Shown here: piece after piece, positions 24,257-49,615 of the stretch
How the letters are laid out: every line of letters begins with the position of its first letter
Numbering within the stretch: the first letter of the stretch is position 1
NCBI GenBank assembly: GCA_016930375.1
Contig: JAFGGU010000082.1
Span: 38,163-102,162 of the forward strand
DNA: 64,000 bases
Reading direction: 5' to 3'
Source of the DNA: Bacteroidales bacterium
Lineage (GTDB): Bacteria > Bacteroidota > Bacteroidia > Bacteroidales > UBA10428
Position numbers and translations under genes: made by a program
Notes under the pieces: model-generated
Told to the model about the DNA's origin: nothing
Databases searched by the model: none
What the model saw: only the letters and a program-made list of their open reading frames with translations

Positions 24257-24290
24257 AAAATCAGTTTGGAGTTAACTCCAAACTGATTTT
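24257..24290. terminator. Bidirectional terminator shared by rpe and ssrA
   Basis: AAAATCAGTTTGGAGTTAACTCCAAACTGATTTT is a perfect 34-nt palindrome with A/T tracts, located between rpe (+) and the tmRNA 3' end (-). Confidence 0.8.
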
Positions 24291-24291
24291 G

Positions 24292-24685
24292 TGGAGCTGC
24301 CGGGAATCGAACCCGGGTCCAAACAAACCGCCCATAAGTTTTCTACATGCTTAGCCCGATGTTGGTTTTCGTACACAGGCTGGCACCGGGCGGCCTACCT
24401 GTATCTTATCCCCTTTTATCTCATCCGGTTGCAGGGGTGTTTACCGGACCAGCTTTACCTTTTATGTGCTCCTTGATCCGCCGCCGTAAAGCAGGGTAGC
24501 GGAGGAACATCTCGTCCCGGCACCTGGTGTCGGGATAAAGCCTGAATCTACTTAATTCGATTAGGCAGCGAGCGCGTAATTTGCTTCGCCATTTAATTGT
24601 TTGCACTGCAGTTTTACGGGATGCCATGCGAAGCCCGGCATGCTTACTTACCTGCTAGCCTGCTGTCAAAGCCAGAACAGCCCCG
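24292..24685 (-). ncRNA. ssrA: tmRNA (transfer-messenger RNA)
   Basis: The minus strand starts GGGGCTGTTCTGGCTTTGACAGC. It ends with the T-arm CCGGGTTCGATTCCCGG plus acceptor CAGCTCCA, with a G3:U70 alanine identity pair. The internal reading frame ggc gaa gca aat tac gcg ctc gct gcc taa (24590..24561) encodes GEANYALAA*. CCA is not fully encoded. Confidence 0.92.
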
Positions 24686-24730: not shown

Positions 24731-24760
24731 CAAAGTTACTGATTAATCCCGATATTGCAA
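24731..24760 (-). promoter_or_regulatory. Candidate ssrA promoter (TTG-N19-TAacTTTG)
   Basis: The minus strand reads aTTG(24760-24758)-19 nt-TAACTTTG(24738-24731), 46 nt upstream of the mature tmRNA 5' end, in the 86-bp gap after gnd. Confidence 0.4.
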
Positions 24761-44429: not shown

Positions 44430-45233
44430 TCATCCGAAATTTCCCCCAATCCTGCTGAAAATCATTTCAGGCTGCCAGGTGAGATTTTCACCCAGAACCA
44501 TCCTGGTTCCTTTTATGGGGGTTTCGGCATAACCGTTTTGTTTCAGGAATTCAATGCCGGTAATATTTTCTGATGGCAGCACTATTCTTTCGGCTTGTGT
44601 AAACTTTACTTTCAGCAATTCCATTCCGGCCTCCGGATTCTCAGCAATAACAGGCCCTTCTTTCAGACCGGGGATAAAGTAACCCTGTACAATTCCATTT
44701 TTCAGATATACCTGTGAACCCTCCAAATGAGTAATTAAAAGCCGCTCGCGGTTTTCCGCACTGACTCTTCTGTCCATTTGAAGGATCTGTGCCCTGTGTT
44801 GCGCATTATATTCAACAATGTTTGGTGCCACCGGGTAATCTAATCCGGATTTTTCACGGTTCATGAAAATATATTCCGAGACAGTTCTGAATCCCGCTTT
44901 TACATATACAGGTTTACCAAGTTCTGTGGCAGTAAGCATACAGGTCGTCACCGGATAGTCCCTGAGACCCTGCAACAATTCTGAAACGATTCCCAAACCG
45001 ATACCCCTGTTTCTGAAGGAAGCATCCACAATAATATGAGCCAGCCAGGCTGTGTTATCGTAAACGATCATAACGCCAATTCCGGCAATACGATTATCCA
45101 CACAGGCTTTTACGGTCCGGCAGAATCCGGACCGGATGTAAAATTCCATGTCGGGAATAATATCTGACCAGTCCTCGGGCTGCAAATGCTTGATTTCGTC
45201 AAGATCGTAACTGGTTATTGGCAGGAATTTCAT
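44430..45233 (-). CDS. GNAT family N-acetyltransferase
   Basis: 267 aa with the acetyl-CoA binding motif FRNRGIGLGIV (R/Q-x-x-G-x-G/A). Confidence 0.8.
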   Translation of the reverse strand: MKFLPITSYDLDEIKHLQPEDWSDIIPDMEFYIRSGFCRTVKACVDNRIAGIGVMIVYDNTAWLAHIIVDASFRNRGIGLGIVSELLQGLRDYPVTTCMLTATELGKPVYVKAGFRTVSEYIFMNREKSGLDYPVAPNIVEYNAQHRAQILQMDRRVSAENRERLLITHLEGSQVYLKNGIVQGYFIPGLKEGPVIAENPEAGMELLKVKFTQAERIVLPSENITGIEFLKQNGYAETPIKGTRMVLGENLTWQPEMIFSRIGGNFG

Positions 45234-45415: not shown

Positions 45416-45793
45416 TTACTTCGTATACTCCTCAAAGTGTACCTGCGCCCATTCTATCATCATTTGAACGGCAGGCATAATGCTTTTACCCATTTCGGTA
45501 AGGGAATATTCTACTCTGGGCGGTATTTCCGCATAAGCCTTTCGTGTCAGAAGATGGTCTCCTTCCAATTTTCTCAGGGAATTGGTAAGCATCTTGTGGG
45601 ATATGTCCGGAATACATTTTCTGAGATCTTTGTACCGCATTTTATCATTGGCCTGCAATGTGCACATAATAAGCAGCGACCATTTATCCGAAAACCGGCT
45701 TAGTACATTTCTAATCGGACAGGTTGGAAAATTTAAATCGAGTTCCCTCATGTTATTTTCATTTGAAAGGGCAAACATACAAAAAATCTCCAT
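45416..45793 (-). CDS. HxlR (DUF24) family winged-helix transcriptional regulator
   Basis: CPIRNVLSRFSDKWSLLIM...MRYKDL...ISHKMLTNSLRKLEGDHLLTR...PPRVEYSLTEMG is the HxlR signature, including the conserved N-terminal Cys. An alternative start is MRELDL at 45751. Confidence 0.85.
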   Translation of the reverse strand: MEIFCMFALSNENNMRELDLNFPTCPIRNVLSRFSDKWSLLIMCTLQANDKMRYKDLRKCIPDISHKMLTNSLRKLEGDHLLTRKAYAEIPPRVEYSLTEMGKSIMPAVQMMIEWAQVHFEEYTK

Positions 45794-45918
45794 TAGAGAG
45801 TAATATCCTTTATAAAATATTATAATCTATTTAGAAAGTGTATAAATTATAATTATTTTGTTCTTATAACTATCTATCAATCAATAATACTAACCTCTAT
45901 GGTGAGTAAGAAACCGTG

Positions 45919-45949
45919 TTGCATATTAATCCCTGTCAGGATACTTTTG
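45919..45949 (+). promoter_or_regulatory. Candidate promoter of the peptide/rSAM operon (TTG-N20-TActTTTG)
   Basis: gTTG at 45918-45921, a 20-nt spacer, then TACTTTTG at 45942-45949, 31 nt before the ATG at 45980. This matches the Bacteroides TTTG/TAnnTTTG consensus apart from one base in the -33 box. Confidence 0.45.
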
Positions 45950-45979
45950 ATCGAAATTCAAATTTAAAACAGAAATGCA

Positions 45980-46261
45980 ATGAACAGACTTAGTAAACTT
46001 AACAGTTGGGCTCATTCCGGTGATTTTTGCTCGCCGAGATCTGCCCAGGGTTACCTGAATCCAAATCCTGTAAACCTGGCAAATTCAGGCTGCGGATCAT
46101 CCTGCGGTTCCAAGGAAGGTGACGAAAAACCGAAATCTTCGGCCTGCGGTGCAGGTGATGATGACAAGAAACCAAAACCCTCGGCCTGCGGTGCCGGTGA
46201 CGAAGGAAGCAAGCCCAAGCCCAGTGCCTGTGGCTCTTCCTGCGGAAGTGACGGCAAATAG
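45980..46261 (+). CDS. Cys-rich repeat peptide, candidate RiPP precursor
   Basis: 93 aa with a leader-like N-terminus (1-35). The core is SGCGSSCGSKEGD / EKPKSSACGAGDDD / KKPKPSACGAGDEG / SKPKPSACGSSCGSDGK. Repeats are conserved in protein but differ at synonymous sites. The ORF ends 15 nt before a radical SAM/SPASM gene. Confidence 0.7.
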   Translation: MNRLSKLNSWAHSGDFCSPRSAQGYLNPNPVNLANSGCGSSCGSKEGDEKPKSSACGAGDDDKKPKPSACGAGDEGSKPKPSACGSSCGSDGK

Positions 46262-46276
46262 AATCGAGGATTCCCC

Positions 46277-47305
46277 ATGGAATATTTCGCCTTTCAATGG
46301 CACATTACCGACAGCTGCGACCAACGCTGCCAGCATTGCTATATTTTTTCGGAAAACAACCATATTCAGTTGAATGAGATGTCCTGGACTGAAATGGGGC
46401 ATGTTTTCGAAAACTGCCTCGACATGTGCCAAAAGGCCAGCCGGTTGCCTTACTTTTACATTACCGGGGGCGACCCCATCCTGCACAGCCGGTTCTGGGA
46501 GCTCATGCAACTGCTCAAGTCGAATGCCATTCCTTTTACCATCCTGGGCAATCCTTTTCATCTGAACGACCAGGTTTGCCAAAGGCTTAAATCATATGGG
46601 TGTGAAAGGTACCAGCTGTCTATTGACGGCCTGCGGGACACCCATGATATGATCCGTAAACCCGGATCGTACGATACAACGCTTGAAAAGATCAAATGCC
46701 TTCGCGATGCAAGAATCCGGTGTGCCATCATGACAACGGTTTCGGGCTCCAACAAGGACGAGATCCCGTGTATCATTGATGTGGTAGTGGAGCACCAGGC
46801 CGATGTTTTTGCCTTTGCCAGGTATTGTCCCACCAGCAACGAGAAAAGCGCTCATCTTACTGCACTGGAGTACCGGGGTGTGCTAGAAGCTAGCTGGCAG
46901 AAGTTTGAACACTACAAGGATTGTGGAACCAGCTTTAACCTGAAGGACCACTTATGGACCCTTTTCCTTTATGAGAAAGGATTGTTTAAAATTCCCGAAG
47001 GCCTGCAGGAAGATATGATGTATGAAGGGTGTAATTGCGGCAATTGCCATCTGACCATCCTGCCAAAAGGAGAAATATTTGCCTGCAGGCGCTTCGAGAG
47101 CAATGTAGGGAATGTCTTCAAGGAGCGTCTGCACGATATATTCACAGGTGATACAATGGATGGTCTGCGGGACTATGACAGGTTCGAAAAATGTTCTTCC
47201 TGCGAACTGCTGCGATTCTGCAGAGGCTGTCCCGCCGTGACATATGGCTATACCGGTAATTTTTATGCTGCGGACCCACAGTGCTGGAAGGTGATGGAAA
47301 ACTGA
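46277..47305 (+). CDS. Radical SAM enzyme with C-terminal SPASM domain (peptide-maturase architecture)
   Basis: CDQRCQHCY (CX3CX2C at residues 14-21), ITGGDPILH (GGE-like SAM motif), and SPASM cysteines C254-X10-G-X4-C270, C306-X2-C-X5-C-X2-C318 and C336. Confidence 0.9.
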   Translation: MEYFAFQWHITDSCDQRCQHCYIFSENNHIQLNEMSWTEMGHVFENCLDMCQKASRLPYFYITGGDPILHSRFWELMQLLKSNAIPFTILGNPFHLNDQVCQRLKSYGCERYQLSIDGLRDTHDMIRKPGSYDTTLEKIKCLRDARIRCAIMTTVSGSNKDEIPCIIDVVVEHQADVFAFARYCPTSNEKSAHLTALEYRGVLEASWQKFEHYKDCGTSFNLKDHLWTLFLYEKGLFKIPEGLQEDMMYEGCNCGNCHLTILPKGEIFACRRFESNVGNVFKERLHDIFTGDTMDGLRDYDRFEKCSSCELLRFCRGCPAVTYGYTGNFYAADPQCWKVMEN

Positions 47306-47321
47306 TTTTAATAAATCCTGA

Positions 47322-47498
47322 TATAATTCAACCTCTACAAGGTTGTTAATATGGGTGGTCAGAATTTTGATTCTACAATAATTCAACTTCTACGAAGTTG
47401 TTTTGTATCCTCGTGAAGTTGTTTTATATCCTCGTAGAGGATAAATTATTGTAGAATAATTAAATAGCATACTCCAACCTCGTAGAGGTTGAATTATA
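47322..47498. repeat. ~180-bp nested palindrome / hairpin cluster after the rSAM gene
   Basis: The outer perfect 17-bp inverted repeat is TATAATTCAACCTCTAC (47322-47338) / GTAGAGGTTGAATTATA (47482-47498). The inner inverted repeat is TCTACAATAATT / AATTATTGTAGA. Local hairpins: CAACCTctacaAGGTTG, CAACTTCtacGAAGTTG, TATCCTCgtaGAGGATA and CAACCTCgtaGAGGTTG. Confidence 0.7.
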
Positions 47499-47520: not shown

Positions 47521-48495
47521 ATGAAAGCAGTTGTTCTATATAAAACCTGCTCACCCCTCGAACTTACCGTGAGTGACATTCCGATTCCTGAGATGAAGCC
47601 GGGATGGGTGCTGATCCGTGTAAAAGCATTCGGACTGAACCGGTCAGAACTCATGATGCGCGAATATGAAGGCAATGCATCCTATATCAGGTTACCCCGC
47701 GTATTGGGCATCGAATGCGCCGGCGAAATTGCGGATCCGTCTGACAGTGCATTCCATGAGGGACAACAGGTAGTGGCCCTGATGGGCGGAATGGGAAGAT
47801 CATTCGACGGCAGTTATGCCGAATACACACTGGTTCCGGTAAAAAATGTTTTTACAGTTGATACTGATCTGAACTGGAATGAGCTGGCAGCCATTCCCGA
47901 AACTTACTTCACCGCTTATGGTTCTCTTTTTCAAAGTTTGCAACTCTCCTCCTCAGACATACTGCTGGTCAGGGGAGGAACAAGTGCAGCCGGTCTGTCT
48001 GCCATACAACTGGCAAGATGTACCGGAGCAACCGTGTTGGCGACAACGAGAAAGGATTATAAACGCGAGGTATTACTTCGTCAAGGTACTGATAATGTCT
48101 TGATTGAAGATGGAACCATTAAAGAACAGGTATTAGAAATACGTCCGGATGGCGTTACAAAAATCCTTGAACTGATTGGACCTGCCACACTCTTTGAATC
48201 GATGTCTCTGGTTAAACAACACGGTATTGTTTGTGTGACCGGAATTCTTGGTAATCAAGGTACAATTGCGGATTTCTATCCCATCAAGGACATCCCTTCG
48301 GGAGTTTATTTAACGGGATTTTCCAGCAATCACCCTACCCAGAAACTCATTGATGAGATTTTCAATCATATCAAAAGGCACAACCTGCGCCCAACCATTT
48401 CAAAGGTTTTTGCCCTCTCAGATATCGGTCAGGCCCATCAACTGATGGAAAACAATACCGCCAATGGAAAAGTAGTTGTCAGTCTGAACTTATAA
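47521..48495 (+). CDS. Zinc-type alcohol dehydrogenase / quinone oxidoreductase family (MDR superfamily)
   Basis: 324 aa with a GroES-like N-terminus (VLIRVKAFGLNRSE) and a Rossmann region (VRGGTSAAGLSAIQLAR). Confidence 0.85.
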   Translation: MKAVVLYKTCSPLELTVSDIPIPEMKPGWVLIRVKAFGLNRSELMMREYEGNASYIRLPRVLGIECAGEIADPSDSAFHEGQQVVALMGGMGRSFDGSYAEYTLVPVKNVFTVDTDLNWNELAAIPETYFTAYGSLFQSLQLSSSDILLVRGGTSAAGLSAIQLARCTGATVLATTRKDYKREVLLRQGTDNVLIEDGTIKEQVLEIRPDGVTKILELIGPATLFESMSLVKQHGIVCVTGILGNQGTIADFYPIKDIPSGVYLTGFSSNHPTQKLIDEIFNHIKRHNLRPTISKVFALSDIGQAHQLMENNTANGKVVVSLNL

Positions 48496-48526
48496 TTGTT
48501 ATGAACATAATGTAATGCTTTATCCT

Positions 48527-49615
48527 ATGAAACCAATAAAAAACTTGCTTTTAAGCGCATTGCTTATACTCTTATTTGATCTGGCCATGACAGCTCAAAT
48601 AAACGACATCTTTATCAATCCAAACACCGGTAACGACCAAAACGCCGGATCGGCCGACCAGCCTTTGAAATCGATGTTTGAAGCAGCTGAAAGAATCAAC
48701 CGGGCTAACGGCAGCGGATCCATTACCGTATTTCTCTCAGAAGGAATTTACGGTTTGGATGCCACCGTGACTTTTCACCCGGCGAACTGGCACTTTACCA
48801 AAGAAAATCGACTAACCATCCGTGCTGCTGTTCTACCCGATGAGGCAAACTGGAATCCCGGGATGATGCCGGTAATTGTATCAACCATGCCCCTTGATTT
48901 TAAGCCCAATGGCAGGCAGGATCCGCTGGGAGGAACATCTTATGGGATCCAGATAGAGACCAGTCATGTTACCATTCAGGGATTTAGGGTTTTAGGCACA
49001 CCTGTACATGAAAGGCCTAAGGAAGGAATGGTAAGGAGAAATTATCCTATTGTCCGGGAAGGCAGGGATCTTGACGACCTAAGAGTTACCCAGTGTCTTT
49101 TCGTCGGGGATCAGCATGTCATTCCCAACCACCTTGCCATACTGGCAAGCGGTCAGGGTGTGGTTGTTGATCATTGTGTTTTCTACCATTGTAAAGATGC
49201 CATTGTCTTTTGGTTTTCTGACGAACCTGCCAGGAATTGTGAAGTGCACCATAATCTGTTTGTTGGCAATTATGGCGCAAATATCTGGTCCTGGTCTGCT
49301 GCCGAAGATTTAAAATTTTACAATAACGTTGTGGGGAATACCAATGTCTTTTGGATTTTAAACAGGGATGAGAAGACTTCTTTCTCGCTGTCAAACTCCC
49401 TGATTATGGGCTACAACGAACTTGTAAACAAAGGAGGTGGTCCGGCAGGTTTTGGTGAAAAAGCCAATCCGGATAAACTGAAATTTGGCAACGATGTTAT
49501 TGTTAAAAAGGAAGGGTCCGTTCAAATAGAAGAAGATCCTACCAGGCGCAACTACCTGCATCTGATGCCAGGCACACCGGGTTCCGATCTGGGAGCGGGA
49601 CTGTTTACCAAATAG
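48527..49615 (+). CDS. Exported protein, probable right-handed beta-helix fold
   Basis: Signal peptide MKPIKNLLLSALLILLFDLAMTAQ (start 48527; track start 48515). Contains repeated coils of the type VDHCVFYHC / VHHNLFVGN / FYNNVVGNT. Function unknown. Confidence 0.55.
   Translation: MKPIKNLLLSALLILLFDLAMTAQINDIFINPNTGNDQNAGSADQPLKSMFEAAERINRANGSGSITVFLSEGIYGLDATVTFHPANWHFTKENRLTIRAAVLPDEANWNPGMMPVIVSTMPLDFKPNGRQDPLGGTSYGIQIETSHVTIQGFRVLGTPVHERPKEGMVRRNYPIVREGRDLDDLRVTQCLFVGDQHVIPNHLAILASGQGVVVDHCVFYHCKDAIVFWFSDEPARNCEVHHNLFVGNYGANIWSWSAAEDLKFYNNVVGNTNVFWILNRDEKTSFSLSNSLIMGYNELVNKGGGPAGFGEKANPDKLKFGNDVIVKKEGSVQIEEDPTRRNYLHLMPGTPGSDLGAGLFTK

Follow-up and report, generated by a model that had tools for sequence, protein, structure and literature searches.

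What a short, cysteine-rich reading frame with exactly spaced repeats encodes, and what becomes of its product, is the question raised by positions 45980–46261 (forward strand) of the 64,000-nucleotide stretch of Bacteroidales contig JAFGGU010000082.1 that was analysed here and is referred to below as the window. The original prediction, made from the letters alone, described in its C-terminal part three diverged 14-residue repeats under selection as the part of a peptide on which a radical-SAM system would act. It also proposed a ranthipeptide maturase and several thioether macrocycles, possibly released as separate products. Our analysis almost certainly identifies the region as the core of an ACGX-repeat precursor peptide (TIGR04341/PF27855), co-encoded with a radical SAM/SPASM enzyme of TIGR04340. 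The observation itself was confirmed, and of its interpretation the selected radical-SAM substrate stood, the ranthipeptide synthase did not, and the released products found no support. The complete explanation, in which the ACGX pair performs chemistry that is preferably SbtM-like and the product has an intracellular stress role, falls slightly short of an even chance in our estimation.

The ACGX-repeat precursor peptide gene encodes 93 residues followed by a stop codon, MNRLSKLNSWAHSGDFCSPRSAQGYLNPNPVNLANSGCGSSCGSKEGDEKPKSSACGAGDDDKKPKPSACGAGDEGSKPKPSACGSSCGSDGK. The peptide is identical to NCBI entry MBN1791332.1, there named 'hypothetical protein JW830_12600', and a mate in its 90%-identity cluster carries the IMG name 'ACGX-repeat protein'. 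The core (46085–46258, forward strand) coincides exactly with residues 36–93, base 46085 opening Ser36 and base 46258 closing Lys93. It begins with SGCGSSCGSKEGD, continues with three 14-residue units and ends in CGSDGK; these 58 residues are rich in Gly, Ser and Pro and include 9 acidic residues; all 7 Cys have Gly as the next residue, and C-X3-C and C-X3-D spacings occur. The units, all on the forward strand, are EKPKSSACGAGDDD (46124–46165), KKPKPSACGAGDEG (46166–46207) and SKPKPSACGSSCGS (46208–46249), the third being a paired-Cys C-X3-C variant that runs on into the C-terminal DGK. Their KPK starts at residues 50, 64 and 78 give an exact period of 14 residues or 42 nucleotides. This period, the codon differences listed in the original prediction (Pro CCG/CCA/CCC, Lys AAA/AAG, Ser TCG/AGT, Cys TGC/TGT, Gly GGT/GGC), the two CGAGD motifs and the two CGSSCGS blocks are all present. 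Around its Cys residues the peptide carries ACGA twice and ACGS once, as well as GCGS and SCGS. An acidic residue follows Cys in C-X3-D/E spacing in one CGSKE and two CGAGD, and the last Cys instead has Asp at +3. Neither a selenocysteine codon nor a selenocysteine insertion sequence (SECIS) element was found in the window peptide.

At the DNA level the repeat is old, because the units have diverged in nucleotides and Tandem Repeats Finder reports only a weak array, but the kinship of units 1 and 2 can still be seen. These two units differ at 10 of 42 nucleotides, and three codons differ only synonymously. Unit 3 differs from unit 1 at 26 and from unit 2 at 20 of the 42 nucleotides, with six synonymous-only codons in each comparison. 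The single period-42 array found by Tandem Repeats Finder spans 46120–46200 and comprises 1.9 copies with 84% matches. When the peptide gene was compared with a same-length orthologue (locus L026), the Nei-Gojobori ratio of nonsynonymous to synonymous substitution rates (dN/dS) was 0.21 overall and 0.18 in the core, at a dS of 0.52. The reading frame is therefore a translated product under selection, as the original prediction had proposed, and with a ratio of about 0.2 this selection is purifying. The corresponding ratio for the enzyme gene is 0.06–0.07 (against loci L001 and L002). Three further open reading frames over the repeat (46051–46278 and 46097–46582 on the reverse strand, 46119–46373 on the forward strand) were rejected as by-products of the GC-rich repeat, and none is conserved as a family.

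The radical SAM/SPASM enzyme gene (46277–47305, forward strand, 342 residues) starts 16 nucleotides past the stop codon of the peptide gene. Its product matches NCBIfam TIGR04340, 'radical SAM/SPASM domain protein, ACGX system', with 587.4 bits against a cut-off of 400, residues 2–339 of 342 being aligned. It is 100% identical to MBN1791333.1 from a 106-kb Bacteroidales metagenome-assembled genome (MAG) contig, which carries the ACGX-system name, and contains the Pfam domains Radical_SAM and SPASM. The family identity follows from this score and the NCBI name, together with the matches of the peptide and its relatives to NCBIfam TIGR04341, 'ACGX-repeat peptide', and the precomputed Pfam annotation PF27855, Target_ACGX, on peptides from Bacillota. 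The window peptide itself scores 23.1 bits (E 8.6e-5) on TIGR04341, which is less than the 28 bits curated as its cut-off; of 25 relatives, 23 match the model at E ≤0.01 (best 9.8e-21). We read the window peptide as a divergent sub-type of the ACGX family, not as a non-member. This sub-type, found in Prolixibacteraceae and Marinilabiliales, is longer, has an LNxW-containing leader and is built of single-Cys KPxPSACGAGD units with the 14-residue period, unlike the compact ACGSACGAGEK pairs of the gut-type peptides. In these features and in its sub-threshold score the locus departs from the catalogued ACGX system, which it resembles in an enzyme above cut-off, an A-C-G-X peptide directly upstream and an architecture common to all 80 relatives described below. 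A Pfam scan of window, Bacillota and gut-type peptides gave no match, PF27855 being evidently absent from the library scanned while it appears in precomputed annotations.

The ACGX system is already known and already annotated on the source contig, and it is not a new kind of element. Literature searches on the system (including TIGR04340/TIGR04341, PF27855 and the combination of HxlR, radical SAM and SPASM) found no experimental paper, and a study that mined Bacteroidales for ribosomally synthesised peptides that are modified after translation (RiPPs) does not mention it (PMC10352776); it is a database-catalogued, bioinformatically defined family. What appears to be undescribed in the literature searched is the quantitative motif with Cys, Asp or Glu at +4, the kinship to SbtM, and the cassette with an HxlR regulator and a reductase across Bacteroidota and Bacillota.

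A scan of species-representative genomes gave 413 stretches encoding a relative of the enzyme, and the 80 best, all from Bacteroidia and 63–87% identical, were analysed. A small Cys-rich reading frame lies just upstream of the enzyme gene in every one of these 80 loci. The claim that the repeats are more than a chance arrangement is upheld by this shared architecture, and the enzyme family and the invariable adjacency together bear out their assignment as substrate of a radical-SAM peptide system. Motif counts were taken from 71 distinct peptides with 342 core Cys, 3 to 8 per peptide. The residue after Cys is Gly in 338 of 342 cases (99%), and the residue before it is Ala (272), Ser (48) or Gly (19), together 339 of 342 (99%). 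At +4 stand Cys (138, 40%), Asp (134, 39%), Glu (50, 15%) or another residue (20). Acidic residues occupy 4% of the +3, 54% of the +4 and 19% of the +5 positions, and where +4 is not Cys it is Asp or Glu in 184 of 204 cases (90%). The strictest constraint is hence the local (A/S/G)-C-G motif, and C-X3-D/E, conserved as it is, covers only part of the pattern. At the C-terminus, CGAG(D/E)K is commonest (42 of 71 peptides; CGAGEK 31, CGAGDK 11), the CGSDGK type of the window occurs in 6, and some orthologues end without an acid (CGSGGN, CGSGGK, CGAGGK, CGVGQ). Acidic residues are at least as numerous as Cys in 63 of the 71 cores. The original prediction had asked whether orthologues vary in repeat number while C-X3-D is invariant. 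The outcome is largely favourable to the prediction, since the repeat number does vary and the spacing is kept at most Cys that have no Cys at +4, but the 40% of Cys with a second Cys at that position and the acid-free ends depart from the expectation.

Members with an enzyme about 70% identical also occur in Bacillota, namely in Sporomusa silvacetica, Clostridium akagii, Desulfotomaculum defluvii and one Caldicellulosiruptoraceae genome. Their peptides share the same plan, e.g. ...RSAQSYF...SGACGSSCGAGDKDKPEPKPTACGSACGAGDD...TACGAGDK, and keep the acid at +4. The carriers include gut Bacteroidales (Alistipes, Bacteroides, Muribaculaceae, Odoribacter, Butyricimonas) and also clostridial and Negativicutes anaerobes.

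Several observations concern the variation of the repeats among relatives. Loci L002 and L026 both come from MAGs of sample MFD02979, and L002 has one extra KKPKPSACGTGDDD unit (107 residues, compared with 93 in L026 and the window); even close relatives thus differ by the gain or loss of units, though existing units have diverged in DNA. In L001, the closest genome (87% enzyme identity), the peptide gene at 2382–2930 of that locus is broken by a run of N within the repeats, giving X in the translation. The repeats appear to break short-read assembly, and repeat counts from MAGs need care. Single core Cys are replaced by Tyr in L009 (ACGSSYGSDGK) and L063 (ACGSAYGASDEK) and by Phe in L084 (TAFGSACGAGDK), and in Prolixibacteraceae peptides the first Cys of the first pair is often Val, Gly or Ala. 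Individual Cys are therefore dispensable, mostly those without their own acid at +4.

Upstream of the core, the leader motif R-S-A-Q-G-Y-L (residues 20–26; 46037–46057, forward strand) is conserved in the family. The pattern [RH][ST]AQxY[LM] occurs in the 71 family peptides and in the Bacillota peptides, and in alignment A1 Ala22 is invariant and Gln23 conserved at ≥90%. The enzyme has no N-terminal domain resembling a RiPP recognition element (RRE), and RSAQxYL is likely the element by which it recognises its substrate.

The enzyme carries the radical-SAM motif CX3CX2C at residues 14, 18 and 21, and its SPASM region contains eight invariant Cys, which would be enough for two fully ligated clusters. 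Outside these regions, Cys47, Cys51, Cys101 and Cys109 (C47-x3-C51 and C101-x7-C109) are 98–100% conserved in 110 members and could form an additional metal or Fe-S site. After TIGR04340, the next families by score are SbtM (171.5 bits), AhbD (128.7), TIGR04053 (120) and NirJ (102), followed lower down by MftC (71.7, cut-off 265), PapB (NF047865; 57.6, cut-off 340) and anSME (56.3), while QhpD is not among the 25 best families. No characterised family model reaches its cut-off on the enzyme, so that membership of PapB, SbtM and MftC alike falls away, even if the enzyme may act in the manner of one of these. The ranthipeptide maturase of the original prediction fails with the PapB score, SbtM being nearest. 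The SbtM match (TIGR04082) lies under the cut-off of 350 and covers profile positions 198–515 only, the enzyme having 342 residues compared with about 516. A HMMER search of 1.84 billion cluster representatives (50% identity) returned 378 relatives at E ≤1e-30. Ten of them, at 33–50% identity, were tested on NCBIfam, and all ten scored ACGX first and SbtM second (158–217 bits), true SbtM members ranking below the 150 best listed representatives. Among solved structures there is no close one, since a PDB sequence search gave only distant matches (SkfB 2e-11, CteB (5wgg) 1e-8, SuiB 3e-7).

A further set of ACGX-like enzymes (P0124, P0125, P0130, P0131 and P0165, 36–47% identity) carries N-terminal extensions of about 270–470 residues that have no Pfam match, and P0224 has a methyltransferase domain in place of the unannotated extension. 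A reading of the long extensions, in relatives of 594–811 residues, as fused reductases was rejected: one is a methyltransferase, one is Fer4_12 and the rest are unannotated. The extended ACGX-like enzymes look like unexplored sister systems.

The genes around the pair were compared by clustering all open reading frames within 3 kb on each side in 81 loci. Only three neighbour families recur, an HxlR regulator, a zinc-ADH/MDR reductase and a nitroreductase. A divergent HxlR-family regulator stands upstream in 65 of 74 loci with enough flanking sequence, and also in the four Bacillota loci. An MDR quinone-oxidoreductase-like reductase on the same strand lies directly downstream of the enzyme gene in 42 of 69 loci, and a nitroreductase (PF00881) takes its position in 28 of 69, so that 68 of 69 loci have either type, two have both and one has neither. 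The two reductase types share one peptide type (21 versus 24). All four Bacillota loci are arranged identically (HxlR, peptide, enzyme, MDR reductase); in three of them there is an overlap of 4 nucleotides between the enzyme stop codon and the start of the reductase gene, and in Clostridium akagii the gap is 35 nucleotides. One relative whose enzyme is 50% identical has a nitroreductase-like reading frame 4 nucleotides upstream. No recurrent protease or exporter was found in the neighbourhoods of the 81 loci, which leaves the proposed release of several products unsupported, and recurrent metal-homeostasis genes were likewise absent from these neighbourhoods.

In the window, the HxlR/DUF24-family regulator (45416–45793, reverse strand; PF01638 HxlR, 102 bits) is divergent from the peptide gene and has the N-terminal Cys-Pro sensing motif FPTCPIRNV, the motif C-P-[IVF]-[RK]-N being present in all 65 HxlR neighbours. 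Its true start is likely Met15 at 45751, giving 111 residues, and the mechanical 125-residue reading frame is likely 14 codons too long, because the longer form is not in the protein collection, homologues have 111–114 residues, and a TAnnTTTG box (45779–45772, reverse strand) lies 21 nucleotides upstream of Met15. The conserved fourth cassette gene (47521–48495, forward strand) encodes a quinone-oxidoreductase-like zinc-ADH/MDR NAD(P)H oxidoreductase of 324 residues with the Pfam domains ADH_N, ADH_zinc_N and ADH_zinc_N_2; it scores 180 bits on TIGR02824 (PIG3 quinone oxidoreductase family), under the cut-off. The gap between the enzyme and reductase genes is 215 nucleotides in the window, compared with ≤60 nucleotides or an overlap in most relatives. 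Within this gap lies a terminator-like hairpin, CAACTTCTACGAAGTTG followed by TTTTG (47384–47400, forward strand), and the reductase may have its own transcript in the source genome, given this hairpin and the length of the gap. A second perfect hairpin of 17 nucleotides, TATCCTCGTAGAGGATA, occurs at 47427–47443 in the same gap, and most relatives have no such gap.

DUF24 regulators are known to sense quinones, diamide, hypochlorite or aldehydes through an N-terminal Cys, and the genes that they control include the nitroreductases YodC and HypO, azoreductases and the quinone oxidoreductase QorA (PMC3351151). The ACGX cassette has both parts of such a module, a sensing-Cys regulator and a quinone reductase or nitroreductase, and by this analogy the peptide and enzyme genes look as though they sit inside a canonical thiol/electrophile stress module. 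It resembles the YodB (with azoR1 and yodC), HypR (with hypO) and QorR (with qorA) modules in a sensing-Cys regulator divergent from an operon whose last gene encodes a nitroreductase or quinone oxidoreductase, and differs from them in having the Cys-rich peptide and radical-SAM genes between regulator and reductase. To our knowledge, no DUF24 regulon with a peptide and radical-SAM pair has been described.

Beyond the cassette, the window has a two-domain GNAT acetyltransferase gene (44430–45233, reverse strand) on one side and a gene for a secreted right-handed beta-helix protein (48515–49615, forward strand) on the other. Both were excluded from the system, because the former is non-recurrent and the latter occurs in only 12 of 81 loci. 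In three Bacillota loci (L081 6091–8655, L083 6038–9026 and L084 6038–8115, in the coordinates of each locus), a same-strand reading frame of 187–278 residues and then a DUF1848 gene follow the cassette. A Macro-domain gene is also downstream in L081 and L084, and L081 then has a glyoxalase-family gene; the 187–278-residue product is weakly SIR2-like in L081 only. By their annotation, these downstream genes look related to NAD/ADP-ribose metabolism.

With family and context in place, the chemistry can be considered. The reading we prefer, tentatively, is an SbtM-like, Cys-centred oxidation that would convert X-Cys to a sulfur-retaining heterocycle (thiooxazole, −4 Da per Cys). SbtM acts on a GGUG (Gly-Cys/Sec-Gly) motif, abstracts hydrogen from the Cys C-beta and forms a thiooxazole, with a loss of 4 Da, absorption at 304 nm and retained reactivity towards iodoacetamide (PMC9204691; PMC11002830). 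We favour this chemistry for the ACGX enzyme because SbtM is its nearest characterised kin and PapB and QhpD are distant, because the near-absolute small residue-Cys-Gly motif appears to parallel GGUG, because all Cys would be treated alike, including the 40% without an acid of their own, and because a sulfur-retaining product would better suit a thiol-stress cassette. The likeness extends over the whole radical-SAM and SPASM region. The SbtM/SbtMa thio(seleno)oxazole system (TIGR04082; Geobacter, Desulfobacteria) differs in that the ACGX enzyme lacks the roughly 197-residue N-terminal region, and the ACGX peptide has no selenocysteine and many repeated sites with Cys, Asp or Glu at +4.

In the proposed mechanism, the enzyme, which presumably modifies the adjacent peptide, would recognise the RSAQxYL leader without an RRE domain and would abstract hydrogen at the Cys of each (A/S)-C-G unit, the Cys, Asp or Glu at +4 setting the register. 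Speculatively, these three residues, all of which can ligate iron, might anchor the substrate in register on an Fe-S cluster, which would reconcile the pattern at +4 with the one immediately around the Cys. The product would stay inside the cell and act in a thiol, quinone or electrophile stress response under the HxlR-type regulator, beside the reductase.

Several points weigh against this explanation. The window peptide stays under the TIGR04341 cut-off (23.1 versus 28 bits), and the enzyme is well under the SbtM cut-off of 350 and without the N-terminal region of SbtM. The literature searched holds no experiment on any ACGX system, and the chemistry is purely inferred. Among characterised SPASM enzymes with Cys-rich peptide substrates, the majority make thioethers. 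The acid at +4, Asp or Glu, has been kept in both phyla, which a PapB-type thioether explains directly and a thiooxazole only indirectly. Furthermore, the regulator and reductase could belong to a stress module that adjoins the peptide gene but has no chemical connection with the peptide, the window having the 215-nucleotide gap with its hairpin. As between thioether and thiooxazole, the balance is about even.

The alternative that survives best, though we consider it unlikely, is a PapB/QhpD-like reaction, in which hydrogen would be abstracted from the Asp C-beta or Glu C-gamma at +4 and C-X3-D/E thioether macrocycles would form between KPKP linkers. The account of freyrasin on which this proposal drew was correct: PapA/PapB make a ranthipeptide with six Cys-X3-Asp/Glu S-C-beta/gamma thioethers, Glu is tolerated, and the links that PapB forms are of the in-line and of the nested kind (PMC9413430). 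The ACGX peptides share with PapA/PapB and QhpD/QhpC the repeated C-X3-D/E, in which Asp and Glu are interchangeable, as PapB would tolerate, and a SPASM enzyme encoded beside the peptide. The acid stands precisely at +4, with far fewer acids at +3 or +5, it is part of the commonest C-terminus and is retained in Bacillota. In most cores there are also no fewer acids than Cys, and the Cys lost from a C-X3-C pair in orthologues is usually the first, which has no acid of its own at +4. However, the 138 of 342 core Cys with Cys at +4 have no own acid to be joined to, several C-termini are acid-free, and the last Cys of the window peptide has its Asp at +3. The enzyme is remote from PapB (57.6 bits against a cut-off of 340), QhpD is outside its top 25 families, and SbtM, AhbD and NirJ all score higher. 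The sequence match to the CteB structure is distant (PDB 5wgg, E 1e-8), and the enzyme does not fall into a thioether-forming maturase family. In addition, Gly after Cys is not a requirement of PapB, for which CSANDA is the minimal substrate (PMC9413430), and the 99% Gly at +1 would thus go unexplained. The context also differs, freyrasin belonging to a natural-product cluster and ACGX to a setting with HxlR and a reductase, and a thioether would use up the thiols, which seems ill suited to a thiol-stress-like cassette.

Still less probable, as we judge it, is some other chemistry, such as formation of formylglycine or a thioaldehyde (anSME-like), Cys desulfuration or dehydrogenation followed by a reductase step, epimerisation, a sactionine S-to-C-alpha link, or a mycofactocin-like redox cofactor for the adjacent reductase. 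In its favour, the enzyme belongs to a clade of its own: it reaches the cut-off of no characterised family, and the ten tested of its 378 relatives score best on ACGX. The four extra invariant Cys (47, 51, 101 and 109) could mean that its set of cofactors is unusual, and enzymes that remain about 70% identical between phyla are met more often in housekeeping or cofactor systems than in the making of antibiotics. The reductase, adjacent in all but one of the 69 loci, often overlapping the enzyme gene and of two types interchangeable with the same peptide type, is required by neither the thioether nor the thiooxazole route. Yet it is explicable as an ordinary target of a DUF24 regulator. Mycofactocin (MftA, MftC and partner dehydrogenases) is similar in that a small peptide and a SPASM enzyme are tied to NAD(P) oxidoreductases, without an exporter and with wide conservation, and one Sporomusa ACGX homologue is auto-annotated as MftC. 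Unlike mycofactocin, the ACGX neighbourhoods contain no MftB, MftD, MftE or MftF homologues, and the substrate has repeated Cys units instead of a C-terminal Val-Tyr. Positive evidence for any specific alternative is lacking, the scores for MftC (71.7 bits) and anSME (56.3) are low, and the peptide contains no sulfatase motif C-x-P/A-x-R.

An unmodified, thiolate-rich metal-binding or metallothionein-like peptide, beside which the enzyme would lie incidentally, has the Cys and acidic residues of the core and their spacings in its favour and is very improbable, given that peptide and enzyme are adjacent in 80 of 80 loci and in a second phylum, that a plain chelator has no need of the conserved RSAQxYL leader, and that no metal-homeostasis genes recur nearby. 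Metal binding by the modified product is possible.

The non-coding signals around the cassette add little to these arguments. A match to the Bacteroidota −7 consensus TAnnTTTG, TACTTTTG (45942–45949, forward strand), lies 31 nucleotides before the ATG of the peptide gene. With the box upstream of the regulator it forms a weak pair of candidate promoters, suggestive by position only, as TAnnTTTG is not enriched in the window (44 found, 55.5 expected). A sigma-70 scan was uninformative (7 found, 7.1 expected), the model being wrong for Bacteroidota. The divergent intergenic region (45752–45979) is AT-rich and contains several imperfect palindromes, for example 45814–45830 paired with 45842–45858; these could be the HxlR operator and are indistinguishable from low-complexity AT sequence. 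Rfam gave no RNA element near the locus. Elsewhere in the window there is a full-length transfer-messenger RNA (tmRNA) gene (24289–24684, reverse strand; RF00023, 156.7 bits) with a promoter-like box, TAACTTTG, a short way upstream at 24738–24731.

The ACGX system is widespread in gut anaerobes, and the conservation of its enzyme, about 70% identical between phyla, is unusually high. The invariant (A/S/G)-C-G motif with Cys, Asp or Glu at +4 offers a handle on it, and as the nearest characterised enzyme is the thiooxazole-forming SbtM, a loss of 2 or of 4 Da per Cys would separate two quite different products. The DUF24/HxlR and reductase cassette, which has no export genes, is more in line with a stress or redox function inside the cell than with an antibiotic; if the stress role is true, gut anaerobes would be using a radical-SAM-modified peptide in a physiologically new way. 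A more far-reaching view, which we hold to be doubtful, is that the enzyme turns the peptide into a sulfur-retaining species, highly nucleophilic or redox-active, for example a poly-thiooxazole. This species would capture quinones, electrophiles or soft metals, or would carry electrons, and would be serviced by the reductase, the cassette forming a defence or redox system under thiol-stress control in strict anaerobes. Should the poly-thiooxazole reading be true, the peptide would do the work of a low-molecular-weight thiol or cofactor while being made on the ribosome, and it would match, by an oxygen-independent route, the thiooxazoles that multinuclear nonheme iron oxidases (MNIO enzymes) produce.

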